A DNA stretch of 52,584 bases, taken from positions 1-52,584 of the forward strand of contig DYHX01000003.1 of the NCBI GenBank assembly GCA_020723925.1, given 5' to 3'. The stretch's first letter is position 1. Every line of letters begins with the position of its first letter. The notes under the pieces were generated by a model, which ran no database searches, was not told the origin of the DNA, and was given only the letters and a program-made list of their open reading frames with translations. Source of the stretch: Nitrospira japonica. Its GTDB lineage: Bacteria > Nitrospirota > Thermodesulfovibrionia > Thermodesulfovibrionales > DYHX01. Both the position numbers and the translations under genes were made by a program. Below are positions 3,916 to 36,180 of the stretch, piece after piece.

Positions 3916-3998
3916 CAATTACAGGGTAAAAATTACTGGTCAAACCATTATATATATCCAGGGTGATAATAACAACCGTATTTAGTATAATTATAACT

Positions 3999-6314: not shown

Positions 6315-6355
6315 GCCTTCGGTGCATAAAAAAATATGTAGGGGTTTATTTAAGC

Positions 6356-20345: not shown

Positions 20346-21287
20346 ATGGCCTTTACACCGCCAAAAGAGACTCATGCAGGTAAGGTTTATGCAGTAACGA
20401 TAGGTTCAGGTGAAGGTGCTGTAACATTCGGAGGCGAGAATGTCCTTCCGTTCAATACCTTCGAAGGTGCATCACCACACAGGCCTGTGATTGCCTATGA
20501 AATCCAGGACGTCCTACCATCTGACTGGCCTGAAAATGTCCAGAAACCCTATGAGGGAGTATCTGGCGACCCTGCTACATGGGCAAGGTTCTGCCAGAAT
20601 ACACTTAAGGCAAAGGCTATAGCCCTGAGGCTTGTCGGAACCCATCCTGACAGGGAGAACCGCTCTCCAGAGGATGCAGCAAAGACTGTCAGGGATGTCC
20701 TTGCAGCGCTCAACGTTCCCCTTATAATCCTCGGAAGCAACCATGTAGAAAAGGATGCGCCTGTGCTTATTGCTGCAGCAGAGGCTGCAAAGGACAGAAA
20801 CTGCATAATCGGAAAGGCTCAGGAAGGAAATTACAAGACTATTACTGCTGCTGCCATGGCAAATAACCACAAGCTAATAGCCATGTCAGAGCTTGATATA
20901 AACCTCTCAAAACAGCTTAACATCCTTATAACCCAGATGGGATTTGACAAGGAGAGGCTCATTACGGACCCGATGTGCTCAGCCCTTGGATATGGACTTG
21001 AATACACATACTCTGTTATGGAGAGGATAAGGCTTGCTGCCCTTGCACAGAATGATTTAACTATGCAGCCGCCGATGCTTGGCGATGTTGGCATGTATGT
21101 CTGGAAGATTAAAGAGACCCAGGCGCCTGAATCTGAACTGCCACAGTGGGGTTCGACAGAGGAGAGGGGTATAGCATGGGAGGCAACCACAGCCACAGCG
21201 CTCCTTGTAGCTGGCGCAGAGCTTCTTATCATGAGGCATCCCATGGCTGTAGAGGCGGTAGAGAAGGTAATAGAAGAACTTGTTTGA
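20346..21287 (+). CDS. acsD: Corrinoid iron-sulfur protein small (delta) subunit
   Basis: FGGENVLPF, DINLSKQLN, ALGYGLEYTYSVMERIRLAAL, WEATTA, LLIMRHP. Confidence 0.95.
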   Translation: MAFTPPKETHAGKVYAVTIGSGEGAVTFGGENVLPFNTFEGASPHRPVIAYEIQDVLPSDWPENVQKPYEGVSGDPATWARFCQNTLKAKAIALRLVGTHPDRENRSPEDAAKTVRDVLAALNVPLIILGSNHVEKDAPVLIAAAEAAKDRNCIIGKAQEGNYKTITAAAMANNHKLIAMSELDINLSKQLNILITQMGFDKERLITDPMCSALGYGLEYTYSVMERIRLAALAQNDLTMQPPMLGDVGMYVWKIKETQAPESELPQWGSTEERGIAWEATTATALLVAGAELLIMRHPMAVEAVEKVIEELV

Positions 21288-21395: not shown

Positions 21396-22739
21396 ATGGC
21401 GTTAACAGGCGTTGAAATATTTAAACTCCTTCCAAAAACAAACTGTAAGAAGTGCGGGCATCCAACCTGTCTTGCCTTTGCAATGAAACTTGCCCAGAGG
21501 CAGGCATCACTTGATTCATGTCCTGATGTCTCTGAAGATGCAAGGAGGATTTTGGGTGAGGCATCTGCTCCTCCAGTAAGGCCGATTAGTCTTGGCGTTG
21601 GTGATAAGGCAGTAAAGATGGGAGAGGAGACTGTCCTTTTCAGGCATGACAAGAAGTTCGTTAATCCCTGCGCATTTGCCCTTGAGATAAAGGACACACT
21701 TTCAGAGGCGGATATAACAAAGAAGATAGAAGATGTTGTTAACTCAGAGATAGACCGTGTGGGTCAGAAACTCAAGATCGATGCGATCGCACTCACAAAC
21801 GAATCTGGAGATGCAGGGAAACTCGAGACTGCTGCAAAGCTTATTTCGTCAAAGGCACCGCAGGTTCCTGTCATAATCTGCACAACAAATCTTCAGGCTG
21901 CAGAGGCAGCAGTAAAGCCATTTGATGACAGGAGGCCTTTGATATATGGTGCAAATGCAGATAATGCAGAGGCAATGGCAAATGTGGCCAAGACCTTCAA
22001 GGCAACGCTCGGGGTCTCTGCTAAGGGACTTGATGAACTCTCCACACTAACGGAGAAGATTAAGTCTTTTGATGTCGAGGATATGGTTATAGATTCAAGC
22101 GCAAGAAGGGCGAAGGAGATACTTGAGGACAACACCCTTATAAGAAGGGCTGCAATAAGGAAGAACTTCAAGCCTCTTGGCTATCCAGTTATAACATTTG
22201 CACAGCGTGAAGACAGCCTGCATGAGGCACTCATAGCAACCATCGGTGTTGCAAAATACTCTTCAATCATAATCCTGAGCAGCATCGAGAAGTGGAAGAA
22301 CCTTGCCCTCTTTACATTGAGGCAGAACCTCTACACAGACCCACAGGTCCCAATGCAGGTTGAGCAGAAGATATACAAGATTGGCGAGGCAACTCCAGAG
22401 GCTCCGCTATTAATCACAACAAACTTCTCGCTTACATACTTCATTGTCTCTGGCGAGATAGAAAACAGTAAGGTTCCATGCAGACTTGCTGTTATGGACT
22501 GCGAGGGGCTCTCGGTTCTTACAGCATGGGCTGCTGGAAAGTTCACAGCGTCAAAGATTGCACAGTTTATAAAGGAAAGCGGTATTGAAAACGAGGTAAA
22601 ACACAGGGATCTCGTTATACCTGGATATGTTGCGATCTTAAGTGGCTCCGTAGAGGAGAAGCTTGAAGGATGGAAGGTAACTGTTGGGCCGAGAGAGGCA
22701 AACGGGCTGCCTGCATTTTTAAGGGCAAGAGCAACATAA
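21396..22739 (+). CDS. acsC: Corrinoid iron-sulfur protein large (gamma) subunit
   Basis: LPKTNCKKCGHPTCLAFAM...CP [4Fe-4S] domain, YTDPQVP, TTNFSLTYF, GLSVLTAWAAGKF, GPREA. Confidence 0.96.
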   Translation: MALTGVEIFKLLPKTNCKKCGHPTCLAFAMKLAQRQASLDSCPDVSEDARRILGEASAPPVRPISLGVGDKAVKMGEETVLFRHDKKFVNPCAFALEIKDTLSEADITKKIEDVVNSEIDRVGQKLKIDAIALTNESGDAGKLETAAKLISSKAPQVPVIICTTNLQAAEAAVKPFDDRRPLIYGANADNAEAMANVAKTFKATLGVSAKGLDELSTLTEKIKSFDVEDMVIDSSARRAKEILEDNTLIRRAAIRKNFKPLGYPVITFAQREDSLHEALIATIGVAKYSSIIILSSIEKWKNLALFTLRQNLYTDPQVPMQVEQKIYKIGEATPEAPLLITTNFSLTYFIVSGEIENSKVPCRLAVMDCEGLSVLTAWAAGKFTASKIAQFIKESGIENEVKHRDLVIPGYVAILSGSVEEKLEGWKVTVGPREANGLPAFLRARAT

Positions 22740-22740
22740 A

Positions 22741-22836
22741 GACAGTGTCAGTGTCAGTGAATAGTGTCAGCAATTAGTGCAAGTGAATAGTGACAGTGTC
22801 AGTAAAAGAAAAGAACTGACACTGAACACTGACATT
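22741..22836. repeat. (GTGTCA)-type tandem repeat plus inverted counterpart (acsC-acsB junction)
   Basis: AGTGTCAGTGTCAGTGAATAGTGTCAG... followed by ACTGACACTGAACACTGACA. Confidence 0.8.
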
Positions 22837-22865
22837 AATCACTATAAATAACATAGGAGGTTGGA

Positions 22866-25064
22866 ATGTCTAAGATAATAGCCTCAGCAGCTATAAGGGG
22901 CGCACATAAGCTGGTTAACCAGGCCGAAGAGATGCTCCAGCAGGCTATTGCTGAAAAGGGTGAGGGCTTTGCCTTTGAATTCCCTGACACAGCATATCAC
23001 CTTCCCATGATCTATGCCATAACAGGCCATGCGGTTAAGACCCTTGGTGATATGAAGATAGCTCTTGGAAACACAAAAAAACTCCTTCATGAAGAACCAA
23101 AGGAACACCTCTATAAGCCATATCTTGGAGAGGCATTAGACTCTGGTATGGCAACACTCTTTGCAGAAGAGATTATAATGGCTCTCCGCTACATAAATGA
23201 GCTTGAGCCACATAAGGACCCTGATACCGGCTATGTTTATAATGGGTTCATCACTGACACCATCCAGCGTAACCTCGGCATACAGCTTGTTGACGGCACT
23301 ATGCCTGGCTTTGCTGCCATCATTGGTGCTGCACCCAATGAAGATATTGCTGTAAATATAGTAAGGGAGCTTCAGGAAAAGAATATACTCACATTTTTAT
23401 CCGGTCATACCAATGGTGACAGTGTCACAAAACAGTTGCAGAGAAAGGGCATTGAACTTGGCTGGGAAACAAGAATAGTCCCGCTCGGACCAGAAACAGA
23501 GCACACAATTTATGCCCTTGACTGGGCAATAAGAGCATCCCTGATATTCGGTGGTAAAAAACCAGGAGACTTTAAAGAGCATCTCAAATATCAAAAGGAC
23601 AGGGTCTTTGCTTTTGCACTCGCACTTGGTGAGCTTGATGACATCAAGTGGTCAACAGGTGCTGGTGCTATAAATATGGGCTTCCCTGCAGTATGCGATA
23701 CAGAGGTGCCTGTCATACATCCAACAGGCGTATGCACATATGAAGAGGTTGACAGGGAGCTTGACCATAACAAAATTGTCCAGAAGGCAATCGAAGTTAG
23801 AGGGCTTAAAATTACAGTTGAGAAGCCCCCGATACCTGTTGCATACGGCCCTGCCTTTGAGGGTGAAAGGATAAGGAAAGAGGATACATTTATCGAGTTT
23901 GGCGGCCAGAGGACACCATCATTCGAATGGGTCAGGACAAAGGAGCTCGATGAGATCGAGGACAACAAGGTCATCATTGTTGGCGCTGAGTGGAAGGAGC
24001 GGTTTGAGAAGGGCGGCCAGATGCCGCTTGGGATAGTGATAGATGTTGCTGGCCGTAAGATGCAGAAGGATTTTGAATCTGTCATCGAAAGAAAGGTTCA
24101 CCACAACATCAATGAGGCCCAGGGAGTATGGCATATGGGCCAGCGTGATATTAACTGGATAAGGATAAGCCACAACGCAAAGAAAGAAGGGCTGACACTC
24201 GAACATATAGGCATAATTCAGGCCACGATGACACACCACAGGTTTAAATCCATCGTGGACAAGGTTCAGGTCACGCTTTATGTAGATGAAAAAGATGTTC
24301 TCGCCATGCAGGAAGAGGCAAGGAAGTCATATCGAGAGCGTGACCAGAGGGTTGGAAGCATGACAGATGAATCAGTGGATATATTCTATTCGTGTCTCCT
24401 CTGCCAGTCTTTTGCACCAAGCCATGTCTGTGTTATTACGCCTGAGAGGCTCGGTCTCTGTGGTGCATATAACTGGCTTGATGGGAAGGCTGCCTATGAG
24501 ATAGACCCTACTGGTGGAAACCAGCCTATTCCAAAAGGCCAGACGCTTGATACTGTAAATGGCCGCTGGTCAGGTGTTGATGAATATCTTAAAAAGGCAT
24601 CAGGTGGCGCTGTCGAGACCATGAACGCATATACAATAATGGACAACCCCATGACATCTTGCGGATGTTTTGAATGTATACTTGCGATCATCCCTGAGGC
24701 AAACGGGGTGATGCTTGTACAGAGAGGTCATACTGGGATGACACCAATAGGCATGAAATTTTCCACACTCGCGGGAACTGTTGGCGGTGGTGTACAGTCT
24801 CCCGGTTTCATGGGTATAGGGAGGAACTTTATCACAAGCAAGAAATTTTTATATGGTGATGGAGGCATCAAGAGGATTGTCTGGATGACAAAGAACCTGA
24901 AAGAGGGTCTTAAAGAGGCATTCAACCAGAGGGCAGCAGAGGAAGGAGTTCCAGATCTTCTTAACAAGATTGCTGATGAGACAGTGGCTGAGGATTCAGA
25001 AAAACTCCTCGAATTCCTTACAGGTGTTGGACATCCTGCACTTGAGATGGAGTCGATGATATAA
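22866..25064 (+). CDS. acsB: Acetyl-CoA synthase (bacterial type, with N-terminal domain)
   Basis: FPDTAYHLP, GPAFEGERIRK, A-cluster ligands CLLCQSFAPSHVC..LCGA..MTSCGCFE. Confidence 0.97.
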   Translation: MSKIIASAAIRGAHKLVNQAEEMLQQAIAEKGEGFAFEFPDTAYHLPMIYAITGHAVKTLGDMKIALGNTKKLLHEEPKEHLYKPYLGEALDSGMATLFAEEIIMALRYINELEPHKDPDTGYVYNGFITDTIQRNLGIQLVDGTMPGFAAIIGAAPNEDIAVNIVRELQEKNILTFLSGHTNGDSVTKQLQRKGIELGWETRIVPLGPETEHTIYALDWAIRASLIFGGKKPGDFKEHLKYQKDRVFAFALALGELDDIKWSTGAGAINMGFPAVCDTEVPVIHPTGVCTYEEVDRELDHNKIVQKAIEVRGLKITVEKPPIPVAYGPAFEGERIRKEDTFIEFGGQRTPSFEWVRTKELDEIEDNKVIIVGAEWKERFEKGGQMPLGIVIDVAGRKMQKDFESVIERKVHHNINEAQGVWHMGQRDINWIRISHNAKKEGLTLEHIGIIQATMTHHRFKSIVDKVQVTLYVDEKDVLAMQEEARKSYRERDQRVGSMTDESVDIFYSCLLCQSFAPSHVCVITPERLGLCGAYNWLDGKAAYEIDPTGGNQPIPKGQTLDTVNGRWSGVDEYLKKASGGAVETMNAYTIMDNPMTSCGCFECILAIIPEANGVMLVQRGHTGMTPIGMKFSTLAGTVGGGVQSPGFMGIGRNFITSKKFLYGDGGIKRIVWMTKNLKEGLKEAFNQRAAEEGVPDLLNKIADETVAEDSEKLLEFLTGVGHPALEMESMI

Positions 25065-25167: not shown

Positions 25168-27153
25168 ATGGATAGTACAAAAAGCGCCGATAAATTGGCA
25201 GAACAGATAATAGAGTGGGGCGAAGCCCATGGAATGGAGACCTGTTTTGAAAGGACAGAAAGACTGAAGCCATGCCCTATAGGTTCCAGTGGTGCATGCT
25301 GTAAAGTCTGCCATATGGGGCCATGCAGATTTGTGGGTAAAAATGCAGAGGAAGAAGCAAGAGGCATATGCGGCGCAACGCTTCCAACAGTTGCAGCAAG
25401 GAATCTTGTAAGGATGATTGCTGCAGGGACTGCTGCACACAGCGACCATGCAAGGGACATGGCATTTACCTTACTCGCAGTTGCCAATGGAGAGACAAAG
25501 GACTTTCAGATAAAGGATGTGAGAAAACTCTACAGGGTTGCAGAGATACTCGGCGTTGAATTTGGAAATGGAAGGGCAGTTAACGATGTGGCGAGAGATG
25601 TAGCCCTTAAATTCATTGAAGATTTTGGCAGACAAAAAGGAGAGATAAATTACCTTAAGAGGGCACCCAAAAAGACCCAGGAAAGATGGAAGAAGTGGGG
25701 TGTTGCTACAAGGGGTATAGACAGAGAAGTTGCTGAGGCTATGCACAGGACATCTATTGGTGTTGACCATGACCCTGACCATCTCCTTACACATGGTTTA
25801 AGAACTGCCCTTGCTGATGGATGGGGCGGCTGCATGATAGCCACAGATATTACCGATATTCTTTTTGGAACTCCAAGACCTGTAAAGGCAGAGGCAAGTT
25901 TTGGAATATTCAAAGAGGATGAGGTCAACCTCGTTGTTCATGGACATGAACCATCCCTCGCAGAGATGATAGTAGATGTTACATCAGAGCCTGAGATGAT
26001 TGCCTATGCAAAATCAAAGGGCGCAAAAGGAATAAACCTTGGCGGTATGTGCTGTACTGCCAATGAAGTTCTGATGAGGCATGGTATTCCTACTGCTGGA
26101 GGCTTTACAAATCAAGAATTGGGGATAATGACAGGGCTTGTGGATGCAATCACAGTGGATGTGCAGTGTATAATGCCATCCATTGCTGAGCTTTCAAAGA
26201 AATTCCATACAAAGGTTATAACAACCTCTGAAAAAGCAAAGATTCCGGGTGCAATGCATGTGGAGTACGATGAACACAGGGCAAAAGAGATAGCAAGGGA
26301 GATAGTGAAGATTGCATGTGACAATTTCCCTAACAGAACAACAGGGGGGAGCCATATTACAGACAGGTTCCCTGTAATTGCAGGCTTTTCCCATGAATAT
26401 ATAGAATATATGCAGGGCGGTTCATGGAGGGGCTCATTCAGACCTCTGAATGATGCGATCATTGCAGGAAGGATTCGTGGGGTTGTTGGACTTGCAGGAT
26501 GTGACAATCCGAGAGTACAGTCACAGGGGATTCACAGATTTCTTGCAACAGAGCTTATCAAGAATGATGTGCTTATTGTTTCCACAGGTTGCGGCTCTGC
26601 TGCATGCGGGACTGCTGGTTTTCTTACACCCGAGATGGCATTAGAGAATGCTGGCCCTGGTCTGAGAGAAGTGTGTGAGGCTATTGGAATTCCACCAATA
26701 CTTCACCTTGGTGCATGTGTCGATAATTCAAGAATTTTGACCATTCTTTCGGCAATGGCAGAAGAAGGTGGTCTCTCTGATGAGATTGGTGGTATGCCTG
26801 GAGTTGGTATTGCTCCTGAGTGGATGTCTGAGAAGGCAATTGCCATCGGATGTTATTTTGCTGCATCAGGTGTTCCTGTAATATTCGGCGGCGAATCACC
26901 TGTTGGAGCAAGTCAGGAAGTAACAAGGATAATGACAGAGGTATGGATGGAGAGATTCAGGGGTGCAATGCATTTCGAGCCAGACCCTGAGAAGATGCTG
27001 GCACTTGCCCTTGATTACATTGATAAGGCAAGGGCAGCCCTTAAGTTAAGAAAGTACGAGCCAGGAAGATTTGGCACTGAAAGGGTGCTCATGGATATGG
27101 CTGCAAGGCGTGAAATCGAGAAGGCTGCAAAACCGCATATTGGAATATATTAG
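25168..27153 (+). CDS. cooS: Anaerobic Ni,Fe carbon monoxide dehydrogenase catalytic subunit
   Basis: CPIG..GACCKVCHMGPC..ICGA (D/B clusters), AAHSDH, HGHEP, GMCCTANE, DVQC, GCDNP, TGCG, GACVDNSR, PEWMSEKA. Confidence 0.97.
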   Translation: MDSTKSADKLAEQIIEWGEAHGMETCFERTERLKPCPIGSSGACCKVCHMGPCRFVGKNAEEEARGICGATLPTVAARNLVRMIAAGTAAHSDHARDMAFTLLAVANGETKDFQIKDVRKLYRVAEILGVEFGNGRAVNDVARDVALKFIEDFGRQKGEINYLKRAPKKTQERWKKWGVATRGIDREVAEAMHRTSIGVDHDPDHLLTHGLRTALADGWGGCMIATDITDILFGTPRPVKAEASFGIFKEDEVNLVVHGHEPSLAEMIVDVTSEPEMIAYAKSKGAKGINLGGMCCTANEVLMRHGIPTAGGFTNQELGIMTGLVDAITVDVQCIMPSIAELSKKFHTKVITTSEKAKIPGAMHVEYDEHRAKEIAREIVKIACDNFPNRTTGGSHITDRFPVIAGFSHEYIEYMQGGSWRGSFRPLNDAIIAGRIRGVVGLAGCDNPRVQSQGIHRFLATELIKNDVLIVSTGCGSAACGTAGFLTPEMALENAGPGLREVCEAIGIPPILHLGACVDNSRILTILSAMAEEGGLSDEIGGMPGVGIAPEWMSEKAIAIGCYFAASGVPVIFGGESPVGASQEVTRIMTEVWMERFRGAMHFEPDPEKMLALALDYIDKARAALKLRKYEPGRFGTERVLMDMAARREIEKAAKPHIGIY

Positions 27154-27210
27154 TGAATAGTAAAAATAAGTGTCTATGACTATTCACTGTTCACTAACGA
27201 CTATTCACTG
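27151..27210. repeat. AGTGAAT/ATTCACT heptamer repeat with inverted counterpart (cooS junction)
   Basis: TAGTGAATAGT ... ACTATTCACTGTTCACTAACGACTATTCACT. Confidence 0.7.
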
Positions 27211-27222
27211 TTTGGGGGTTAG

Positions 27223-27708
27223 ATGAAAATAGAAGAGCTGAATGTGGATGAAAGGATAGGCAGCGCTGGCGATGTCCTTACAGAGAGCCAGAAAAAGAGG
27301 GGGCTACTGATCCATGCATTCCAGAGTATACAGAAGGAGCACAATTATCTGCCAGAGGATGTTTTGCAACAATTATCAAAGAAACTTGATATACCGCTAT
27401 CTGACGTTTACAGCACAGCCTCTTTTTACAAACACTTCTACTTTAACCCGAGGGGTAAGAACATAGTCTGCGTATGCATGGGCACTGCCTGCCATGTAAG
27501 GGGAGCAGGAAAGGTATTGGAGAAATTGGGGAAAACCTTCGGGGTGAAGGAAGGCGAGACAACTCCTGATTTATCGTTGACCCTTGAGACTGTAGGTTGT
27601 GTCGGCTGTTGCGGACTGGCCCCTGTTGCTACAGTAAATGACGAGGTTGTGGGTGACCTTAGCGCTAAAAAGGTTGATGAGATAATAAAGAAAGTTAAAG
27701 AGGGGTGA
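27223..27708 (+). CDS. NuoE/HydC-like [2Fe-2S] subunit
   Basis: NYLP, ASFY, CMGTACHVRG, ETVGCVGCCGLAP. Confidence 0.92.
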   Translation: MKIEELNVDERIGSAGDVLTESQKKRGLLIHAFQSIQKEHNYLPEDVLQQLSKKLDIPLSDVYSTASFYKHFYFNPRGKNIVCVCMGTACHVRGAGKVLEKLGKTFGVKEGETTPDLSLTLETVGCVGCCGLAPVATVNDEVVGDLSAKKVDEIIKKVKEG

Positions 27709-27709
27709 G

Positions 27710-29596
27710 ATGGGAAAGCTAAAGAGCGCAGAGGATTTGAGAAACCTGAGAAAACTCCTTGAGGATGAGACGTTTAAACCGGGAACCCCGAGGATGAGGG
27801 TCTGCAGCGGTACCGCCTGCACTGCCACAGGCTCACAAAAAGTTGTAAATGCTATACAGGATGAGGCAGCAAGGAGGGGGATAACCCTCGATATTGTAAA
27901 GACAGGCTGCCAGGGTTTTTGCCAGAAAGGGCCTGTCATGAAGGTTGAACCACAGGGGATATTCTATCAGAAGGTTAACCCGGAACACGCCTCATGGCTC
28001 ATTAGCTATACAGTCATCGGAGGGATACCATACAGGCAGGGCCTTTTCAGGGAAAATATTTTGAGCGAACCTATACCTGAGATGACAGATGTACCCTTTT
28101 ATAAGAAACAGGTGAGAATAGTTTTGAAAAACAATGAGCTTATAGACCCACGAAATATCTATCATTATATAGCTGTTGGCGGATATTCAGCCCTGGAGAA
28201 GGCCATTGGCTCCATGACCCCTGATGAGGTATTGAATGAGATAGATAGGGCGAACCTGAGGGGCCGCGGCGGCGCAGGGTTTCCAGCAGGGAAGAAATGG
28301 AGGCACACGAAGAATGCCCCGGGAGAGATAAAGTTTGTAATAGCAAACGGTGATGAAGGAGACCCTGGAGCATTTATGGACAGGTCTGTTATGGAAGGGG
28401 ATCCCCACAGCCTTTTTGAGGGGATGCTCCTCTGCGCGTATGCCATTGGCGCACAATACGGGCTTATCTATGTGAGGCACGAATATCCATTAGCTGTTAA
28501 GAACCTGGGGATTGCAATTAAGCAGGCGGAGGAACTTGGGCTGCTCGGCAAGAATATCCTCGGCAGCAACCTTAGCTTTACCATTGATATAAGGGAAGGC
28601 GCCGGTGCCTTTGTATGCGGTGAATCAACTGCACTTGTTGCATCCATCGAGGGTGAGAGGGGATTCCCAAGGCCGAGACCCCCGAGGCTTTCCGAACCAG
28701 GCGGTGGGGTATGGGGTTATCCGAGTAATTTGAATAATATAGAGACATATGCATGTGTGCCTCCTATAATCGAGAGAGGGGCTGATTGGTTTCGAAGCAT
28801 TGGCACAGAGAATTCTCCAGGCACAAAGGTCTTTGCCCTTACAGGCAAGGTTAAAAACACAGGGCTTGTTGAGGTTCCGATGGGGATAACCCTCAGGGAG
28901 ATTGTTTTTGATATCGGCGGCGGTATTACGGGAGGCAAAAAGTTCAAGGCTGTGCAGACCGGTGGGCCTTCTGGAGGCTGCCTGCCTGCAGAATACCTTA
29001 ACCTGTCTGTGGATTTCGATTCCCTTACAAAGGTTGGCTCTATGATGGGCTCAGGCGGTATGGTCGTCATGGATGAGGACAACTGCATAGTCGATGTTGC
29101 AAAGTTTTTCCTCTCATTCACACAGTCAGAGTCCTGTGGCAAGTGTCCTCCGTGCAGAATAGGCACATCACAGATGCTCGAAATCCTCGAAAAAATAACT
29201 TCAGGACAGGGAGAAGAGGGCGATATCGAACGACTTGAGAAGATAGGAAGGCTTGTCCATGACGGCTCTCTCTGTGGTCTTGGCCAGAGCGCACCGAACC
29301 CTGTGCTTTCTACAATAAAATATTTCAGAGAAGAATACGAAGAACACATATATGATAAATATTGTAGGGCAAAGGCATGTAGCGGTCTTGGCATGTTCAG
29401 GATAGACAATGATGAATGCTTCCTTTGCGGGCTCTGCAAGCAGGCGTGTGCATTCGATGCTGTAAAAGAGACAAAGGATAAATTTTTTATAGATCAAGAC
29501 TACTGCACAAAATGCAAGGCGTGTTACCCTGCATGCCCGATAGGGGCGGTGAAAATAGAAAAACAAGCAAGAAAAAGTGTCAGTGTCAGTGAATAG
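27710..29596 (+). CDS. NuoF/HydB-like FMN/NAD(P)H-binding subunit with N-terminal [2Fe-2S] and C-terminal 2x[4Fe-4S]
   Basis: CSGTAC..GCQGFC; LRGRGGAGFP; NGDEGDPGAFMD; GAFVCGE; QTGGPSGGC; ESCGKCPPCR..SLCGLG; EHIYDKYCRAKAC; two CxxCxxCxxxC motifs. Confidence 0.94.
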   Translation: MGKLKSAEDLRNLRKLLEDETFKPGTPRMRVCSGTACTATGSQKVVNAIQDEAARRGITLDIVKTGCQGFCQKGPVMKVEPQGIFYQKVNPEHASWLISYTVIGGIPYRQGLFRENILSEPIPEMTDVPFYKKQVRIVLKNNELIDPRNIYHYIAVGGYSALEKAIGSMTPDEVLNEIDRANLRGRGGAGFPAGKKWRHTKNAPGEIKFVIANGDEGDPGAFMDRSVMEGDPHSLFEGMLLCAYAIGAQYGLIYVRHEYPLAVKNLGIAIKQAEELGLLGKNILGSNLSFTIDIREGAGAFVCGESTALVASIEGERGFPRPRPPRLSEPGGGVWGYPSNLNNIETYACVPPIIERGADWFRSIGTENSPGTKVFALTGKVKNTGLVEVPMGITLREIVFDIGGGITGGKKFKAVQTGGPSGGCLPAEYLNLSVDFDSLTKVGSMMGSGGMVVMDEDNCIVDVAKFFLSFTQSESCGKCPPCRIGTSQMLEILEKITSGQGEEGDIERLEKIGRLVHDGSLCGLGQSAPNPVLSTIKYFREEYEEHIYDKYCRAKACSGLGMFRIDNDECFLCGLCKQACAFDAVKETKDKFFIDQDYCTKCKACYPACPIGAVKIEKQARKSVSVSE

Positions 29597-29767
29597 TGTC
29601 AGTAAGAATTTTACTAAGAAGACCACAAGTAAGGCGACATAATTATGTTTGTTTTGTCATCCCGACTTGAACGGGATCATTCTTCAAGAAGGATTCCTGA
29701 CAAGCAGGAATGACAGAGTGTGGTGCCTTACTTATGACCGTATTTGTAACTGACACTGACACTAACT
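29576..29767. repeat. (GTGTCA) repeat pair enclosing a REP-like palindrome
   Basis: AGTGTCAGTGTCAGTGAATAGTGTCAG (29576-29602), inner TGTCATCCCGACTTG...CAAGCAGGAATGACA (about 29655-29715), then ACTGACACTGACACTAACT. Confidence 0.75.
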
Positions 29768-29776
29768 GGAGGCAAG

Positions 29777-30367
29777 ATGACAGAGCAGAAGGAAAAAAAG
29801 GTTGAGGACATAAAGAAAGAGGCAGAGGCAACAAAAAAATGCCCTGTCAACAAGGCCTTTTACTACATAGATGAGTTTCTGTCCGGCCCAATGTGCGGTA
29901 AATGCCTGCCGTGTTCTCTTGGGAGTTATGAGGCAAGGATTCGCCTTGATAATATAGTTCAAGGGAAAGGCGCAGAGGTTGACCTATACGCCCTGAAGAG
30001 GATTGCAAATGAGATGCTTGAAGGCTCCATGTGCAAGAAAGGCAAGGATACAGCTAAATTTATACTTGACTGGATGAGTACAGATGTTTATAGGGAGCAT
30101 ATTGAAGGAAAGTGCCCTGAGATGGAATGCCTTGCCCTCATAGAATACAGGATTATTCCCGAAAGATGCATTATGTGTGGGGACTGCCAGGAGGTTTGCA
30201 AGTATAATGCGATTATGGGTGAGAAGAAGGTGACGTATCTTTCAGGGTATCTGCCTTTTGAGATAAGGCAGAAGAGGTGCACCAAATGTGGTGAGTGCGT
30301 AAAAGTCTGCCCGACAGCGTCAATTGTGATTGTTGATGTAAAAAGTAAAGAGCTTGTTGGAGTATAA
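29777..30367 (+). CDS. Stand-alone Fe-S protein equivalent to the C-terminal half of NuoF/HydB ([4Fe-4S] N3-type domain + 2x[4Fe-4S])
   Basis: CPV..MCGKCLPCSLG..SMCKKG..EHIEGKCPEMEC, then CIMCGDCQEVC and CTKCGECVKVCP; GGAGG RBS. Confidence 0.85.
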   Translation: MTEQKEKKVEDIKKEAEATKKCPVNKAFYYIDEFLSGPMCGKCLPCSLGSYEARIRLDNIVQGKGAEVDLYALKRIANEMLEGSMCKKGKDTAKFILDWMSTDVYREHIEGKCPEMECLALIEYRIIPERCIMCGDCQEVCKYNAIMGEKKVTYLSGYLPFEIRQKRCTKCGECVKVCPTASIVIVDVKSKELVGV

Positions 30368-30376
30368 CTTTAAAAT

Positions 30377-30452
30377 TGTCACCCTGAACTTGTTTCAGGG
30401 TCTAATAAATTAAAATTGATTATTAAGATGCTGAAACGAGTTCAGCATGACA
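30377..30452. repeat. REP-like inverted palindromic pair
   Basis: TGTCACCCTGAACTTGTTTCAGGGTCT ... AGATGCTGAAACGAGTTCAGCATGACA. Confidence 0.75.
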
Positions 30453-30470
30453 TTAATAGGGGAGGCATAG

Positions 30471-32498
30471 ATGGCAAATATGGTAAAACTCACAATAGAT
30501 GGTAAAGAGATTTGTGCTCCTGAAGGGATGAACCTCGTAGAGGCTGCTGAGGCTACTGGCATTCATATTCCAAACCTCTGCTACCTGAAAGGCATGAAGG
30601 GTATAGGTGCATGCAGGATGTGTCTTGTTGAGGTAGAAGGTATGAAAGGTCCAATGATAGCATGCACAATGAAGGTCAAAGAGGGCATGGTTATCAACAC
30701 AAAGACAGAAAAGGTTCAAGAAGTTCGTAAATTTGTCATAGACCTTATTCTCTCGATGCATCCACTTGACTGTATGACCTGCACAAAGGCAGGGGTATGT
30801 AACCTCCAGAAGTATGCATATGACTTTGAGATAAAAGAGTCAAGTTTCACAAGGAAGAAGTTTGGATATCCAGTTGATGAGGCAAACCCATTCATAAAGC
30901 GTGACCCCGACTACTGCATACTCTGCGGAAAATGCGTTCGTATCTGTAAAGAGCAGGGGACAAAAGTCCTCGAGTTTATGGGAAGGGGTGTTGGCTCAAA
31001 GGTTACAACAGCAAATGATAAGCCTCTTCAGGAATCGGGCTGCACATTTTGTGGAAGTTGCGTGGATGCATGCCCTGTTAATGCCCTTCTTGAGGCTGAC
31101 AGATGGAGGAAGGGAAGGGAATGGGAATATGAGAAGGTAGGTTCTGTGTGTCTTTCATGCGGTAATGCATGTGATATAACAGTCAGCGTGCATGACAATG
31201 AGGTAGCAAAGATAAACGCAGGTGCGCCAGAGGGTTCTATTGAACAATACATATGTGCAATAGGGAGATTCGGTTTTGACTGCATGAAGAGTGAGACGAG
31301 GCTCACATCTCCGATGAAGAGGGTGGGTAACGAACTCAAGGAGACAACATGGGAGGATGCCATCGAAACAGTTGCAAAGGAACTGAAGAAGGCTGGTGAA
31401 AATGCAGGATTTATATCAACAGCAGGAATCCTGAATGAAGATGCTCTTACCCTAAAGAAATTCGCATCGGATGCTGTAAAGACAAAGAATGTCGATACAA
31501 CTGCAAGCCTTTACGGAGATGCAGATACATTAATATCAGGAAGTGCAAAGCTTGATTCAGCAGACCTCTTTGTACTTGTGGATTTAAATCCAAGCCAATG
31601 GGACAGGGTACTGCCTGCAATTGATGCTGTCATCAGAAGAAGGATTAATGCAGGTGCAAAACTGATTGTCATTAATTCTTCAGAGCCGAAGGTTGCATCT
31701 GTGGCAACGGTAAATCTTATTGAGAACGAGTCGTCAGCCCTTATGTCCCTTGCAAAGGCACTTATTGATAAAGGCTTGACAGGCGATAAAAAGCTCGCAT
31801 CAGCAGTTTCAAATGCATCAGTTACAGAGGCAGTGGAAAAGGCAGCAACACTTTATATGGAGGCAAAGAATCCTGTGATACTCACATCTCCTGCAATGTA
31901 TCCTGCTGCTGCCAATATCAGCCTCTTAAAGGGCGTAGCAGTATCAGTGCCTGTTGAGTCCAATGCAAAGGGTGTAATTTTAATGGGACTCACAACAGAG
32001 GGAAAGACATACAAGGAGATGGTCTCAGGCGGCATGAATGTCCTCTATGCTGCTGGTGAGATACCCGCCCTGAAGTCAGAGGTCAGGGCGAATGTGGATT
32101 TCCTGATTGTTCAGAACTCTCATCTTTCAGAGCTTGCAAAGCAGGCAGATATTGTCCTGCCATCGGCAACCTTCCTTGAGGCAGAAGGCAGCATTGTGGA
32201 TTACCTTGGAAGGCTCAAGTATGTGCTTAAGGCTGTCGAGCCAGCAGGCGAGGCAAAACAGCACAGGAATATTTTTATAGAACTCTCAAAGGCGATGGGC
32301 AGTCCGATAAAAGAACCAAAAGAAACTGAGATAAAGAAGGCAATGAAAATAAAGGCAAAGCCATCGTTCAGCCCATTTAAGAAGAAAGAGGGGCTTGATA
32401 TATCCCCGAATGAGATGATCGAGTCTATCAACGCATCTGTGATCAATGGCTCAAGGCTCCTCTGGCTCAAGGAAACAGAGAAAACCGTTACAGTTTGA
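30471..32498 (+). CDS. NuoG/HydA-N-terminus-like Fe-S subunit with degenerate molybdopterin-oxidoreductase C-terminal fold
   Basis: [2Fe-2S] (LCY..GACRMC..AC), His-ligated cluster HPLDCMTC, CILCGKCVRIC, CTFCGSCVDACP, CLSCGNAC..CAIGR; ADIVLP..EAEGS tail; no H-cluster motifs seen. Confidence 0.85.
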   Translation: MANMVKLTIDGKEICAPEGMNLVEAAEATGIHIPNLCYLKGMKGIGACRMCLVEVEGMKGPMIACTMKVKEGMVINTKTEKVQEVRKFVIDLILSMHPLDCMTCTKAGVCNLQKYAYDFEIKESSFTRKKFGYPVDEANPFIKRDPDYCILCGKCVRICKEQGTKVLEFMGRGVGSKVTTANDKPLQESGCTFCGSCVDACPVNALLEADRWRKGREWEYEKVGSVCLSCGNACDITVSVHDNEVAKINAGAPEGSIEQYICAIGRFGFDCMKSETRLTSPMKRVGNELKETTWEDAIETVAKELKKAGENAGFISTAGILNEDALTLKKFASDAVKTKNVDTTASLYGDADTLISGSAKLDSADLFVLVDLNPSQWDRVLPAIDAVIRRRINAGAKLIVINSSEPKVASVATVNLIENESSALMSLAKALIDKGLTGDKKLASAVSNASVTEAVEKAATLYMEAKNPVILTSPAMYPAAANISLLKGVAVSVPVESNAKGVILMGLTTEGKTYKEMVSGGMNVLYAAGEIPALKSEVRANVDFLIVQNSHLSELAKQADIVLPSATFLEAEGSIVDYLGRLKYVLKAVEPAGEAKQHRNIFIELSKAMGSPIKEPKETEIKKAMKIKAKPSFSPFKKKEGLDISPNEMIESINASVINGSRLLWLKETEKTVTV

Positions 32499-32592: not shown

Positions 32593-33810
32593 TTAATGGT
32601 TAGTTTCCTTAAGCGGCAGAAATTTTACTCCGAATGTGTATAACAATGCAAAGAGGGCAGTTATCCCCAGCGTAATAACAATCTCAAAGAATGTCGGGAA
32701 ATATGAAGGAAGCCCTTCTTTTAATACCGGAAGCACCTGTCCTGCTGTGACGAAATTATATCTCATCACGAATAAACCCATGAGAACGAGCAGTGAGCTA
32801 ACAAATATTCCACGATGTGTTACCTTTGGAGTTAGAAGTATTATTATCGGAATAATCGTTCCAAGCAGTATTTCAAAGACATAGAAAGAAAAGCTGAATG
32901 GTCCATTTATCAGCAACATAATTGAGTTTATCTTTTCAGGGTTATTTACGCTTGAAAAGATCATCCATGAGTTAAACAAAAGCCCCATAGAAAGCATCAG
33001 GGCCAATAATTTGCCAAGCTCACATATTAATCTACTTAGTTTATCACCAATCTCTTCCCCTCTTATCCAGTATGTAAGGATTGTGATGAACAGAAAGAAG
33101 GAAAGCCCTGAAAATGTTGCTGATAGAACAAAATAAGCAGGGTAGAACGCACCATACCAGAGTGATCTCGCCTCTGTGTGCGCAAAGACTGCACCGAGTG
33201 TGCTTACTGCCGCGAGTCCTGTAACGAATGCTGATCCTCCTGCTGCCTTTGCAAGTTTATGGTCAAGGTGAACCGACCTTTCGGATTCATCCTTCCTTCC
33301 AAAAACGAGCAGGCTATAAAATACCTGTTTGTATCCTGTTGAGGTGTTGGCAATCTTTGCCATATCAGCCCTCGCAAGTAACAGGTATTCTATAATCACA
33401 AAAAGCAGATATACAGAATAGAAGAACCCCATCCACAATATACCTGACTTGAGGTTGGGGCTTAAATACACATAGACAAATGCCCTCTCTACATGTCCAA
33501 GATGAAGGAGGATTGCTAAAAGACCTGACATAATAGCTATTGAGGCAAAGAATACACCCCTTTTGCTTATTAATTCATATCTTTTGATGCCAAAGACATG
33601 CCCTAACGATGTTATAACACACATGCCTGAACCTGATACTACAAAGAAGACATATACAGATACAAGCATTGTCCACGGGATGTGTGTTGATATCTCAAGT
33701 ATCTCCTGACCCTCTACAAAGCTCAACAGAACTACAAATGCCCCAAGGATAATAAAGGCAAGTAGGAAACTCATCCACCAATAAAAAATTGTATCTCTGC
33801 TGGAAATCAT
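32593..33810 (-). CDS. NrfD/PsrC-family quinol oxidoreductase membrane subunit
   Basis: About 10 TM helices; IPWTMLVSVYVFF, HLGHVER, SPNLKSGILWM, RSLW, RYNFVTAGQ. Confidence 0.9.
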   Translation of the reverse strand: MISSRDTIFYWWMSFLLAFIILGAFVVLLSFVEGQEILEISTHIPWTMLVSVYVFFVVSGSGMCVITSLGHVFGIKRYELISKRGVFFASIAIMSGLLAILLHLGHVERAFVYVYLSPNLKSGILWMGFFYSVYLLFVIIEYLLLARADMAKIANTSTGYKQVFYSLLVFGRKDESERSVHLDHKLAKAAGGSAFVTGLAAVSTLGAVFAHTEARSLWYGAFYPAYFVLSATFSGLSFFLFITILTYWIRGEEIGDKLSRLICELGKLLALMLSMGLLFNSWMIFSSVNNPEKINSIMLLINGPFSFSFYVFEILLGTIIPIIILLTPKVTHRGIFVSSLLVLMGLFVMRYNFVTAGQVLPVLKEGLPSYFPTFFEIVITLGITALFALLYTFGVKFLPLKETNH

Positions 33811-33819
33811 GCCTCCCCC

Positions 33820-34641
33820 CTATTCTTTGTCACCACTTCCGCGTGAAAAAAGATATAAAACACCCGCAAGTACTGCCCCTGCAAGAAAGCCGGTGGAACT
33901 TATCCTTAGCCTGTCAATGTCCTCGGATACTATTTTTTGTGGTGCAACAATAAGCCCCATTTCTTCGGGAGGAGCCGGCAGGATGGTGATAACATCTGTT
34001 CCCCCTGCCTCCTTCTCTCCAAGTACATAACCTCTGACAAGCTGAGCCTTTACCCTCGCTTTCCTCAGCATCAGGTCTCTGTATCCATAATCCAGTGCCT
34101 CAACAGGACAGGCAGCCACACAGGCGGGTTTGAGTTTTGGTATCCTGTCATAACAGAGATGGCACTTCCTTGTGATTCTCTTATGAAAATCAAATCTTGG
34201 CACCTTAAATGGACATGCCTGATAGCAATACCTGCAGCCTATACACTTTGTCTCGTCTATGACAACAGCGCCTGTTACTGGATTTTTTGTAATGGCGGTT
34301 ACAGGGCATACACCTGCACAGGCAGGTTTTATGCAATTCTGACATTGCCACTTTAAAAATTTCCCTATCTCGCCATTACGGCTGCTCCGAACAAAGTTAA
34401 CCACTGTATAGGTGGTCCCGTCCATATCCCTTACCAGCGTCTCAGGGACTTCGTAGGGTGGAAGTTTATTCCAACGCTTGCAGGCAGACATGCAGCGCCT
34501 GCATCCTATGCACTTGAAGGTATCCATGAGCTTTGCATACCTTCTCTCGCCTGTCTTAGGATTTACGGCGAGCGAGGCAGGCGCCGCGCCCATCAGCTTT
34601 ATAAAATCACGCCTTGTAAGGTTACTGTCTTCCCATGCCAT
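33820..34641 (-). CDS. Tat-exported NrfC/HybA-like 4x[4Fe-4S] protein with C-terminal anchor
   Basis: TRRDFIK twin-arginine motif; CIGCRRCMSAC, CQNCIKPACAGVCP, CIGCRYCYQACP, KCHLC..PACVAACP; start reassigned to ATG 34641 (GGAGA upstream). Confidence 0.9.
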   Translation of the reverse strand: MAWEDSNLTRRDFIKLMGAAPASLAVNPKTGERRYAKLMDTFKCIGCRRCMSACKRWNKLPPYEVPETLVRDMDGTTYTVVNFVRSSRNGEIGKFLKWQCQNCIKPACAGVCPVTAITKNPVTGAVVIDETKCIGCRYCYQACPFKVPRFDFHKRITRKCHLCYDRIPKLKPACVAACPVEALDYGYRDLMLRKARVKAQLVRGYVLGEKEAGGTDVITILPAPPEEMGLIVAPQKIVSEDIDRLRISSTGFLAGAVLAGVLYLFSRGSGDKE

Positions 34642-34661
34642 TTCCGTATCTCCATTCTTGT

Positions 34662-34734
34662 TTGTCATCGCGAGGCTGACAAAGTCAGCCAAAGCAATCT
34701 CAAGACGAGATTTCTCGCTTCGCTCGGAATGACA
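34662..34734. repeat. REP-like palindromic element
   Basis: TGTCATCGCGAGGCTGACAAAGTCAGCCAAAGCAATCTC ... GAGATTTCTCGCTTCGCTCGGAATGACA; outer TGTCAT/ATGACA ends like the elements at 29655 and 30377. Confidence 0.7.
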
Positions 34735-34752
34735 AAAAGTGAGTAATAAAAC

Positions 34753-36165
34753 CTATTTCTTTGGTGCTTCTTCTTTCTTATCTACCTTATCTACAGGTTT
34801 TTCAATTGAAATTGTTACTTTTCCAAGTCCGAATTGTTCTCTCCTTTTGTTTTTAACTGCCTCCACTACCTTCATCATATCTTCGGGCTTGTCTTTTTCA
34901 TGGTAATGGCATGCATTGCAGGAGTTTGGCTGTTTTGCAAGACCGCCGTGTTTAAGGGTTTCAGAAGGGCTTACGAACTTAAATCTGTGGCTGCTTATGT
35001 CAAACTCTGCTTCTCCCCTCTTAACTGCTGTCTGGGAGGTCTTTGGCATGTGACAGCCCCTGCAGTCATTGGTTGTGTGGATGCCGTGGAAACCTTCATT
35101 AGTTATCTTATGGCAATTTAAGCATAATTCATTGGCAGGTGCCTTTAATGAGCCCTTGCTTAGTGCTCCTTTTTGATGCACTGCATGACAGTCCCAGCAG
35201 TTTACACCCGAAAGTGCATGTTTGCTCTTTGCCCAGTCTACATACTGCTGGCGATGCATCTTTGGACTGCCGTCAGGCCACTCGCCAGGTTTTTCGTCAT
35301 AATAGCTCCTTAATACCAAGCCGGGTAGATACCCAGCAGGACCTCCAGAATATTCATAATGTTTCGGACCATAAGGCGATTCCGTGTTCTTTACTGATAC
35401 ACCTCTATTGTGGCACTGTCCACATATCTGAGCAGCACGTTTTGCATCGTGTATCTTTGCAGGATTAACTATGGTCGTGGACTTTAAACCGAGAGGCGCC
35501 TTCAAATGCTCACTTCCCGGCCCATGGCATGACTCACATCCTATCCCGCGTTCTACCAGAGTGGTATCGAATCTATCATTTTTTGCATCATAATTAATCT
35601 TTACTCCAACTGCGTGGCAGCCTGAGCAGTGATACTGCCATGCCCTTCCTTTGTCACTCCAGTATTTGCCGTCTCCGGGCTTCTGTTTTGCAAGACCATG
35701 ATAATCCGTCCATTTCTTTGTCTCCACATTCCACTGAACCGGTAAGACATGGAGTGCGCCGTTTGGGAATTCTGTTAAATATCTCTGCTTCCATGCACCT
35801 CCGATAACATATTTAAGCTCGTATGTTTCTTCTTTACCATCACGACCTATTGTTGTAACATAGTGTTTACCATCTTTTGTAGACATCTTTGTTGTGTAGT
35901 CGCCTGCTTTAAAGGTGTTGTTCTTTGTGAAATCACCGACTACAGTATTTATACTTGCAGGTCTTTCCTGATGGGGATGGAGGGTTGTGAGCCAGCTTTC
36001 ATACTGGTCTTTGTGACAGCCTGCGCACCTCTGTGAGCCTACATATTCAGCCTTTGAAATGGCAGTAATCATCTCATCTGTATATCCAAAAGGTTGCTGT
36101 GTATAAACCATCAGCACAGCAACTACAAGCACTATTGAAAATAATATGACTTTCATATGTTTCAT
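34753..36165 (-). CDS. Periplasmic octaheme cytochrome c (paralog 3)
   Basis: Signal peptide; 8 CxxCH: CAGCH, CSGCH, CESCH, CGQCH, CWDCH, CLNCH, CRGCH, CNACH. Confidence 0.92.
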   Translation of the reverse strand: MKHMKVILFSIVLVVAVLMVYTQQPFGYTDEMITAISKAEYVGSQRCAGCHKDQYESWLTTLHPHQERPASINTVVGDFTKNNTFKAGDYTTKMSTKDGKHYVTTIGRDGKEETYELKYVIGGAWKQRYLTEFPNGALHVLPVQWNVETKKWTDYHGLAKQKPGDGKYWSDKGRAWQYHCSGCHAVGVKINYDAKNDRFDTTLVERGIGCESCHGPGSEHLKAPLGLKSTTIVNPAKIHDAKRAAQICGQCHNRGVSVKNTESPYGPKHYEYSGGPAGYLPGLVLRSYYDEKPGEWPDGSPKMHRQQYVDWAKSKHALSGVNCWDCHAVHQKGALSKGSLKAPANELCLNCHKITNEGFHGIHTTNDCRGCHMPKTSQTAVKRGEAEFDISSHRFKFVSPSETLKHGGLAKQPNSCNACHYHEKDKPEDMMKVVEAVKNKRREQFGLGKVTISIEKPVDKVDKKEEAPKK

Positions 36166-36180
36166 TTCTATAACCTCCCT

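Follow-up and report, generated by a model that had tools for sequence, protein, structure and literature searches.

A four-gene module of the electron-bifurcating Bfu family as a conserved neighbour of the CO dehydrogenase gene in Thermodesulfovibrionia

The stretch of DNA analysed here (the window) comprises 52,584 nt of contig DYHX01000003.1 (GCA_020723925.1), recorded under the name Nitrospira japonica; its host is an uncultured member of Thermodesulfovibrionia (Nitrospirota), represented by a metagenome-assembled genome (MAG) of 1.87 Mb in 106 contigs with a completeness of 93.8%. Between 18.6 and 32.5 kb, the window carries one tight run of genes on the + strand, cooC-like-acsE-D-C-B-cooS-bfuC-bfuB-fes196-bfuA, in which the genes of a CO dehydrogenase/acetyl-CoA synthase (CODH/ACS) are followed by a module of HydABC-like genes. 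The catalytic subunit of CODH and the four genes of the module are:

25168-27153, + strand: cooS/acsA, Ni-Fe CO dehydrogenase catalytic subunit of 661 aa (TIGR01702, 569.5 bits against a cut-off of 478; PF03063, 528 bits)
27223-27708, + strand: bfuC, HydC/NuoE-like [2Fe-2S] protein of 161 aa (PF01257, 158 bits)
27710-29596, + strand: bfuB, HydB-type NuoF-like protein of 628 aa (PF01512, 136 bits; PF10589, 119 bits; Fer4 families at residues 564-615)
29777-30367, + strand: fes196, Fe-S protein of 196 aa (PF10589 and Fer4 families, with two 4Fe-4S motifs)
30471-32498, + strand: bfuA, NuoG-like protein of 675 aa (Fer2_4, NADH-G_4Fe-4S_3, Fer4, Molybdop_Fe4S4 and Molybdopterin domains)

A preliminary description of this locus had placed HydC-, HydB- and NuoG-like genes after cooS, on the same strand and across a gap of 69 bp, which the coordinates bear out. 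These three genes are real, but a fourth at 29777-30367 (fes196) had been overlooked, and the module consists of four genes. The spacers measure 69 bp (cooS-bfuC), 1 bp (bfuC-bfuB), 180 bp (bfuB-fes196) and 103 bp (fes196-bfuA). A simple scan found no terminator-like site on the + strand from cooS to the end of bfuA and no promoter-like site within the 69-bp gap between cooS and bfuC, which, together with the 1-bp spacing of bfuC and bfuB, hints weakly at a single transcript. The N-terminal Cys pattern of CooS, as read from its translation, is CPIGSSGACCKVCHMGPC. The full ACS operon claimed earlier is also present, with acsE-D-C-B-cooS all located upstream of the module; for the product of the first gene below, only its gene position suggests a cooC/acsF-like role:

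18631-19398, + strand: cooC/acsF-like P-loop ATPase of 255 aa, first gene of the acs cluster (PF01656 CbiA; weak MinD-family matches)
19552-20334, + strand: acsE, methyltetrahydrofolate:corrinoid/Fe-S protein methyltransferase (NF040758, 255 bits, below the cut-off of 370; NF005719, 236.7 bits, below the cut-off of 259)
20346-21287, + strand: acsD, corrinoid Fe-S protein small subunit (NF003376, 423 bits against a cut-off of 280)
21396-22739, + strand: acsC, corrinoid Fe-S protein large subunit (NF003195, 593 bits against a cut-off of 306)
22866-25064, + strand: acsB, acetyl-CoA synthase subunit (NF040764, 1023 bits against a cut-off of 800; Pfam ACS_CODH_B_C, CdhC and CODH_A_N)

The best solved relatives of BfuC are the HydC subunits of bifurcating hydrogenases (8a6t_C, 156 bits; 7t2r_C, 137 bits). 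BfuB has the layout of an N-terminal [2Fe-2S] domain, an FMN/NADH domain, the B1 cluster, the B2 site and a C-terminal 2x[4Fe-4S] region, and it matches the NiFe-HydB structure 7t2r_B over its full length with 750.7 bits, the HydB subunits of [FeFe] bifurcating hydrogenases scoring 616-715 bits. Its PF01257-like N-terminal stretch (residues 25-98, E 1.2e-7) and its Fer4_21 match (residues 564-615) both align with 7t2r_B, a NiFe-Bfu protein and the best solved relative of BfuB, which is put in clade 49 by Schut et al. 2022 (PMC9304861). According to that paper, the Bfu family is defined by its BfuBC core, the B2 ligands Cys, Cys/Thr, His, Cys and Cys are diagnostic of bifurcating members and missing from non-bifurcating homologues, and the latter are without clusters B2-B5. 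When counted by hand along the printed alignment with 7t2r_B, residues C459, T497, H546, C552 and C557 of BfuB align with C438, C476, H525, C531 and C536 of the B2 site. The motifs of the HydB-like subunit in the preliminary description (GDPGAFMD, GGPSGG, CIVD, EHIYDKYCRAKAC and the C-terminal 2x[4Fe-4S] region) are all in the translation, and its statement that such features are typical of the bifurcating family agrees with the five B2-site positions and the N- and C-terminal cluster domains found here.

The domains that define BfuB (NuoF FMN, SLBB, NuoF Fe-S and 4Fe-4S ferredoxin) are given as InterPro entries in PMC9304861. The SLBB match of BfuB, at 25.8 bits, is slightly below the cut-off of 27, and the NuoF equivalog TIGR01959 is not reached (452 against a cut-off of 558.65). 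The Pfam families considered for BfuB presumably correspond to those InterPro entries. Taken together, bfuC-bfuB are predicted to encode a true Bfu-type BfuBC core. In four related loci (L018, L021, L040 and L077) two full-length bfuB genes stand in tandem ahead of fes196.

The site content of BfuB also bears on the idea that the module is a non-bifurcating, NADH-linked wire between NAD(H) and CODH or ferredoxin that operates without energetic coupling. The literature is reportedly divided on whether the B2 site holds a [2Fe-2S] cluster or is a structural metal site, which would count for such a wire, as does the fact that every Codh-Bfu, the CODH-associated type of the family, is biochemically uncharacterised. 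BfuB has all of B2-B5 by sequence, and the non-bifurcating homologues described in PMC9304861 lack them; we regard the uncoupled wire as improbable.

BfuA carries motifs for a [2Fe-2S] cluster, a His-ligated [4Fe-4S] cluster, two further [4Fe-4S] clusters and an N7-like [4Fe-4S] cluster, followed by a molybdopterin-type domain that is pterin-less. All five cluster motifs are common to 7t2r_A in the alignment, and among 37 orthologues 18 of the 20 ligand positions are invariant and the other two at least 90% conserved. Pfam finds in BfuA neither the H-cluster domain (PF02906/Fe_hyd_lg_C) nor the pterin cap (PF01568/Molydop_binding), and in the alignment with FdsA (6tg9_A) the 'CH' segment of the latter, which we take to provide its Mo ligand, falls in a gap of BfuA. 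The protein scores 156 bits against the formate dehydrogenase (FDH) profile TIGR01591, with a cut-off of 666, and 346 bits against the NuoG equivalog TIGR01973, below its cut-off of 470. The earlier reading of a large subunit without an H-cluster or a Mo-ligating Cys/Sec segment is therefore upheld by the Pfam domains and the gap opposite 6tg9_A, and BfuA is predicted to have no catalytic site of its own. In the scheme of PMC9304861, with the assignment of the BfuA motifs to A3, A4 and A5 being our own reading of that description, BfuA would be Type-3-like, as in the NiFe enzyme, and not of the Type 2 of the predicted Codh-Bfu.

The overlooked subunit, fes196, appears from its sequence to be a free-standing paralogue of the C-terminal third, or Fe-S arm, of BfuB. 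It shares 33% identity with residues 458-617 of the BfuB encoded next to it, aligns with residues 471-627 of HydB 8a6t_B with 87.8 bits, and is without an FMN domain. Its motifs are a B1-like CxxCxxC...C, a B2-like C...H-x4-C-x4-C in which Val takes the Thr/Cys position, and a pair of 4Fe-4S motifs; the ligands (15 Cys and one His) are invariant at all 16 positions among 37 orthologues. Of the 58 loci that hold both bfuB and bfuA, 56 have a fes196 match between the two, the exceptions being L034, with a 35-residue remnant only, and L025, with none. Small PF10589+Fer4 protein clusters in the Atlas are labelled Bacillota, Thermodesulfobacteriota, Planctomycetota and Chloroflexota, and a metagenome search for distant relatives of fes196 gave nothing beyond orthologues, at 54-73% identity. 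A Rosetta-stone fusion of fes196 and bfuA, considered for an open frame of 857 aa in genome G118, was rejected, as the two genes lie in different frames there. A complex prediction for CooS and fes196, run without controls, scored 0.00 against a mark of 0.32 and counts neither for nor against their contact.

In 31 of 57 related loci, a 140-aa gene with a CBS pair (PF00571, 99.6 bits; for example, L086:8877-9299) is inserted between bfuB and fes196. It is missing from the window (29597-29776) and from 25 other loci, and the gap between bfuB and fes196 is bimodal in size, at about 14-270 bp or about 470-890 bp. The CBS-pair protein may regulate the module as a subunit that senses nucleotides.

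Conservation of the arrangement was assessed on 71 related loci, onto all of which the window proteins were mapped by tblastn. Nitrospirota is named in the record titles of 70 of them, which are mostly MAGs of Thermodesulfovibrionales/Thermodesulfovibrionia. Twenty loci, in which the sequence is cut too near the module, were left out of the linkage count, and 51 are informative. Taking "directly upstream" to mean on the same strand as bfuC with a tblastn gap of less than 800 bp, cooS is directly upstream of bfuC in 37 of the 51. In six more, cooS lies 2.7-3.8 kb upstream and is separated from bfuC by two genes on the opposite strand, NfnB- and NfnA-type by Pfam, and L048 has the nfnAB layout plus a DUF3786 gene, with cooS 6.5 kb upstream. 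In L077 and L079, cooS stands directly after bfuA (bfuC-bfuB-fes196-bfuA-cooS). The remaining five (L034, L036, L072, L073 and L085) show no cooS in the 2.6-6.7 kb visible upstream. Of the 51 informative loci, 39 thus have cooS adjacent to the module and 46 have it no more than about 6.5 kb away, in line with the pairing of CODH and module put forward earlier. Metagenome contigs fetched with the fes196 alignment give a similar count, with cooS directly upstream in 25 of 27 informative cases; 53 of the 80 contigs are too short to judge and some are identical to contigs of the MAG records.

BfuA was placed in a quick maximum-likelihood tree whose root was set with two paralogues taken from the same genome; there, L077 and L079 branch first, all deep branches are linked to cooS, and the unlinked state has at least four origins. 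The downstream cooS of L077 and L079 is a second, independent arrangement; in L079, the longer of these two loci, nfnA and nfnB precede bfuC, pilus genes follow cooS and no acs gene is in view. Among the unlinked loci, the genomes of L034 and L036 have an acsEDCB-cooS operon elsewhere that ends at cooS, L073 is a second module copy, the other one in that genome (L020) being linked, and the queries used detected no CooS or AcsB in the genome that holds L072.

In module-bearing loci, the Nfn-type genes were recognized by their domains, Fer4_20 and Pyr_redox_2 for NfnA and DHODB_Fe-S_bind and NAD_binding_1 for NfnB. They adjoin the module in L042, L043, L045, L046, L047, L054, L048 and L079, and putative Nfn-type genes adjoin cooS without the module in L103 and L104. 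Their strand is opposite to that of the module in one clade and the same, ahead of bfuC, in L079. A clear NfnAB orthologue was not found in the window's genome.

A survey of BfuA over 390 species genomes of the class, tallied by hand with a best E of at most 1e-110 as ortholog level, gave some match in 374 genomes, of which about 297 are at ortholog level and 77 at paralogue level only, and none in 16. Ortholog-level BfuA is thus present in roughly three quarters of the genomes by this hand count, with the absences somewhat inflated by contig breaks.

We propose that bfuC-bfuB-fes196-bfuA encode a soluble flavin/Fe-S complex of the Bfu (HydABC-like) electron-bifurcating family, in which BfuB would use its FMN for NAD(H) and its C-terminal [4Fe-4S] arm for ferredoxin, with no site for a third substrate. 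The third redox reaction would be supplied by CooS of the upstream CODH/ACS, with the CODH clusters exchanging electrons with the BfuA wire, for which fes196 would be the likeliest route. The net reaction would be CO + H2O + NAD+ + oxidised ferredoxin <-> CO2 + NADH + reduced ferredoxin, and in the autotrophic direction NADH would give half of the electrons for CO2 reduction inside CODH/ACS. The CO2/CO couple lies at about -520 mV (PMC9304861, Table 1). By our own reasoning, a very low concentration of CO inside CODH/ACS would shift this couple into the window between NADH and ferredoxin, where confurcation would save half of the reduced ferredoxin; a similar low-CO argument is made in PMC9304861. 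We put the probability that the module is functionally coupled to CODH at roughly 0.5. That the two also make up a stable physical supercomplex is possible and should be taken as tentative.

A fuller version of the same idea, which we advance with considerable reserve, is that in most Thermodesulfovibrionia CODH/ACS would be wired to a four-subunit Bfu to give a bifurcating/confurcating acetyl-CoA synthase supercomplex, with fes196 as the adaptor at the D-cluster of CODH and with nfnAB matched to it in stoichiometry. In such a supercomplex, NADH and reduced ferredoxin would drive the reduction of CO2 to CO at the C-cluster, and in reverse, cleavage of acetyl-CoA would yield NADH and reduced ferredoxin. 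The fes196 subunit would have arisen by duplication of the ferredoxin arm of BfuB and would plug into the D-cluster of CODH, the usual docking place of free ferredoxin. In loci with adjacent nfnAB, Nfn would convert 2 NADPH to 1 NADH and 2 reduced ferredoxin and Bfu would consume the same, so that, given this matched stoichiometry, NADPH alone could power the carbonyl branch.

If CODH is not the partner, the module could serve as a diaphorase for an FDH or hydrogenase encoded elsewhere, as in Fdh-Bfu or NiFe-Bfu. Subunits B and A of NiFe-HydABCSL (7t2r) are among the closest solved relatives of BfuB and BfuA, and BfuA shares its length class and its five cluster motifs with 7t2r_A (692 aa), which fits such a role. 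The window's genome has four NuoF-like loci, namely the window itself and loci on three further contigs, C78, C28 and C32. At C78:12182-17217 (L016), a NuoE and a 592-aa BfuB are followed by a 916-codon frame with one internal stop, both halves of which match FdhA; its C-terminal part reaches 673 bits with TIGR01591 and is fused to a NuoG-like N-terminus of its own. This is probably a selenocysteine-type Fdh-Bfu with its own core, the internal stop being the selenocysteine codon. The second locus, C28:7508-14315 (L015), is a Bfu-type cluster encoding a receiver-domain-NuoE fusion (287 aa), a 127-aa protein like the N-terminus of BfuB, a 614-aa BfuB, an 826-aa NuoG/Fdh-like protein and a GAF-domain protein, and is preceded by genes for a histidine kinase, an anti-sigma-factor-like protein and a sigma-54 activator. 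The sole [NiFe] large-subunit gene of the genome (C12:1392-2696) has one in-frame stop mid-gene, which could denote a pseudogene, a sequencing error or recoding, and its neighbours encode a hydrogenase small subunit and sulfhydrogenase-type beta and gamma subunits. PF02906 was found nowhere in this 93.8% complete genome, which speaks against an [FeFe] hydrogenase. The earlier account had named an FDH or hydrogenase elsewhere as the partner that would undo its reading; here, the probable selenocysteine-type FdhA follows its own NuoE and BfuB, and the [NiFe] subunit has its own beta and gamma partners besides its internal stop. No hydrogenase or FDH gene was seen beside the module in the 71 loci, where the queries were the window proteins and such genes would be visible only in annotated flanks. 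A diaphorase role thus strikes us as highly improbable.

A related proposal, that the module is an NADH/ferredoxin input module of complex I ('Nuo-Bfu') docking on a Nuo encoded elsewhere, would suit the NuoG-like character of BfuA (346 bits with TIGR01973), and Nuo-Bfu has been reported for Nitrospirae and Planctomycetes, with BfuB in clade 39 (PMC9304861). Against this, the third locus, C32, is a nuo operon with in-line nuoEFG (nuoB-C-D-E-F-G), encoding a canonical 412-aa NuoF (609 bits with TIGR01959, above the cut-off) and an 864-aa NuoG. Moreover, the module lies inside a nuo cluster in 0 of 71 loci, and BfuB and BfuA are both below the NuoF and NuoG equivalog cut-offs; we see only a remote chance that this proposal holds. 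Since FDH, Nuo and the [NiFe] hydrogenase each carry an NAD module of their own, the obvious rival partners are removed.

The alternative that carries more weight is a free-standing redox-balancing enzyme, complete in itself or serving a partner other than CODH, which would exchange electrons among NAD(H), ferredoxin and a third soluble enzyme or carrier, for example, a second ferredoxin at fes196 or the methylene-tetrahydrofolate reductase MetVF; the adjacency of cooS would then reflect only the common ferredoxin pool of the Wood-Ljungdahl pathway. We consider this a tenable alternative of limited probability. In its favour, the invariant unit is the four-gene module, which stands in its own operon in five of 51 loci and behind opposite-strand nfnAB in seven; fes196 duplicates the ferredoxin-facing arm of BfuB; and nfnAB recurs beside cooS, confirmed by Pfam in module-bearing loci and suggested by gene sizes only in three module-less ones. 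MetF is encoded in a folD-(222 aa)-metF operon without redox partner genes, which can be taken as a further point for this alternative, and nothing ties MetF to the module. On the other hand, a Bfu core requires a third redox partner, and only CooS is conserved nearby. Further, cooS is adjacent in two gene orders, including a stand-alone cooS without acs genes, and neither metF, hdr nor any other oxidoreductase gene is seen beside the module in the annotated flanks of the five unlinked loci, three loci with the nfnAB insert, L048 and L079.

Several observations weigh against a tight union of CODH and module and go some way toward the free-standing enzyme, since CODH/ACS is common without the module and CooS does not co-vary with it. 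AcsB is still present in 62 of 80 class genomes without ortholog-level BfuA (37 of 44 high-quality ones), 13 of the 93 such genomes having been left out of this check. Strict co-occurrence of module and CODH/ACS was accordingly dropped, as its converse half fails in these 62 genomes. In 24 module-less genomes sampled, 16 of 20 full-length CooS loci have no bfuC after cooS; the other four do carry bfuC, cut by contig ends, and because of these the list of module absences is inflated. A tree of 65 CooS sequences revealed no module-specific subtype (correlated indels were not screened): module-bearing and module-less genomes interleave, and supported branches force at least eight changes, a count inflated by those four loci with a cut bfuC, which were mislabelled as module-less. 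Opposite-strand nfnAB separates cooS from bfuC in seven relatives, in which the module consequently needs its own promoter, and the module lies elsewhere in five. G005, a 2.7-Mb MAG of unstated completeness belonging to a paralogous clade, has the module, and CooS and AcsB were not found in it with the queries used. The recurrence of nfnAB fits a looser neighbourhood of ferredoxin and pyridine-nucleotide genes as well as it fits a complex. Finally, by our own reasoning, bifurcation would make sense only at very low steady-state CO, because CO2/CO at its E0' of about -520 mV lies below ferredoxin. The earlier proposal that CODH is the catalytic partner therefore stands in part: cooS is a conserved neighbour and the rival partners are self-equipped, but the seven nfnAB-split loci, the five unlinked ones and the 62 of 80 genomes with AcsB and no ortholog-level BfuA speak against a strict reading.

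Other features of the window touch the same operon or its surroundings. The operon spacers at 22740-22865, 27153-27222, 29578-29776 and 30368-30470 hold short repeats (CAGTGT runs and GTGAATAGT/ACTATTCAC) and hairpins; GTGAATAGT and its complement have 61 and 59 copies in the genome compared with about seven expected for each. A short-repeat run also supplies the last codons of bfuB (…SVSVSE), and a 7-bp tandem run is located at about 46927-46956. Upstream, at 3963-8188, lies a corrinoid methyltransferase set, comprising a B12-binding protein, a URO-D-like methyltransferase, a DUF1638 protein and a RACo-type reductive activator of corrinoid proteins, which fits a methyl-group input to the same pathway. 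The minus strand at 32593-38805 has genes converging on the operon; they encode a membrane protein resembling NrfD, an Fe-S protein resembling HmcB, and three multihaem cytochromes c of 409-470 aa that are paralogues of one another. A conserved link to these convergent genes was considered and dropped, as 0 of 71 related loci matched those queries.

Wood-Ljungdahl organisms living near the thermodynamic limit have to cover the cost of a CO2/CO step of very low potential. For four Firmicute genomes a bifurcating CO dehydrogenase has been predicted; the enzyme has never been isolated. In a whole class of Nitrospirota from the subsurface and sediments, CODH/ACS is usually accompanied by a related module of different build, which includes a new type of subunit. 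If this module is truly coupled to CODH, abundant groundwater bacteria that reduce sulfate or cycle sulfur would need half as much ferredoxin for acetyl-CoA synthesis, or would regain NADH when acetyl-CoA is oxidised. The module would also offer biochemists a widespread, strongly conserved target on which to test the Codh-Bfu idea.

Among known systems, the complex I N-module NuoEFG and Nuo-Bfu share the three-subunit ancestry, and BfuA has the N7-like cluster and pterin-less domain of NuoG; unlike them, BfuB has extra N- and C-terminal cluster domains, and the module lies outside the nuo operon of a genome with a separate canonical nuoEFG. The [FeFe] HydABC enzymes (8a6t, 7q4v and 7p5h) are similar in their B and C subunits (616-715 bits for BfuB and 113-156 bits for BfuC) and in the FMN, B1, B2 and C-terminal ferredoxin arm, whereas the BfuA of the module is without their H-cluster domain (no PF02906). 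In CooS-CooF-flavoprotein clusters of clostridia and Carboxydothermus, CODH is reportedly tied to a pyridine-nucleotide flavoprotein via an Fe-S subunit; there, CooF is said to be a polyferredoxin and the FAD/NAD oxidoreductase to be unrelated to NuoF, and the system is not thought to bifurcate. NiFe-HydABCSL (7t2r/7t30), the best solved match of BfuB, has a BfuA of the same architecture (692 compared with 675 aa) with a degenerate molybdopterin-type domain, and its catalytic site resides on separate subunits that dock on BfuA, an arrangement which the module may resemble. It differs in that the module has no hydrogenase subunits, has CODH/ACS as its neighbour and adds fes196. The organism of 7t2r/7t30 is Acetomicrobium mobile (PMC9304861).

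The closest counterpart is Codh-Bfu, predicted as Type 2 by Schut et al. (PMC9304861) from four sequences, biochemically uncharacterised and restricted to Firmicutes (Acetohalobium arabaticum and Clostridium cellulovorans), which bears out the preliminary statement that CODH-associated members of the family have been predicted from genomes. Both have the BfuBC core, a BfuA that has no catalytic site, cooS in the cluster, extra [4Fe-4S] subunits and the same proposed reaction. In the Firmicute clusters, as the paper describes them, cooS lies between bfuB and bfuA and BfuA is without clusters A3 and A5, whereas in the Nitrospirota cooS is upstream of bfuC, at the end of a full acsEDCB-cooS operon, and BfuA has all five motifs and the pterin-less domain. 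The extra subunit here is a paralogue of the BfuB C-terminus, the Firmicute extra subunits being compared by description only. Full-text searches (including PMC8671834, PMC8027613, PMC7325909, PMC13657043 and PMC11033732) gave no description of the arrangement in Nitrospirota and no prediction of a Codh-Bfu outside PMC9304861; the genes may already be in the supplementary tables of that paper, in an unassigned clade. Those tables aside, the phylum, the full CODH/ACS operon, the type of BfuA, the fes196 subunit, the optional CBS-domain gene and the association with nfnAB set the present case apart from the predicted Codh-Bfu.

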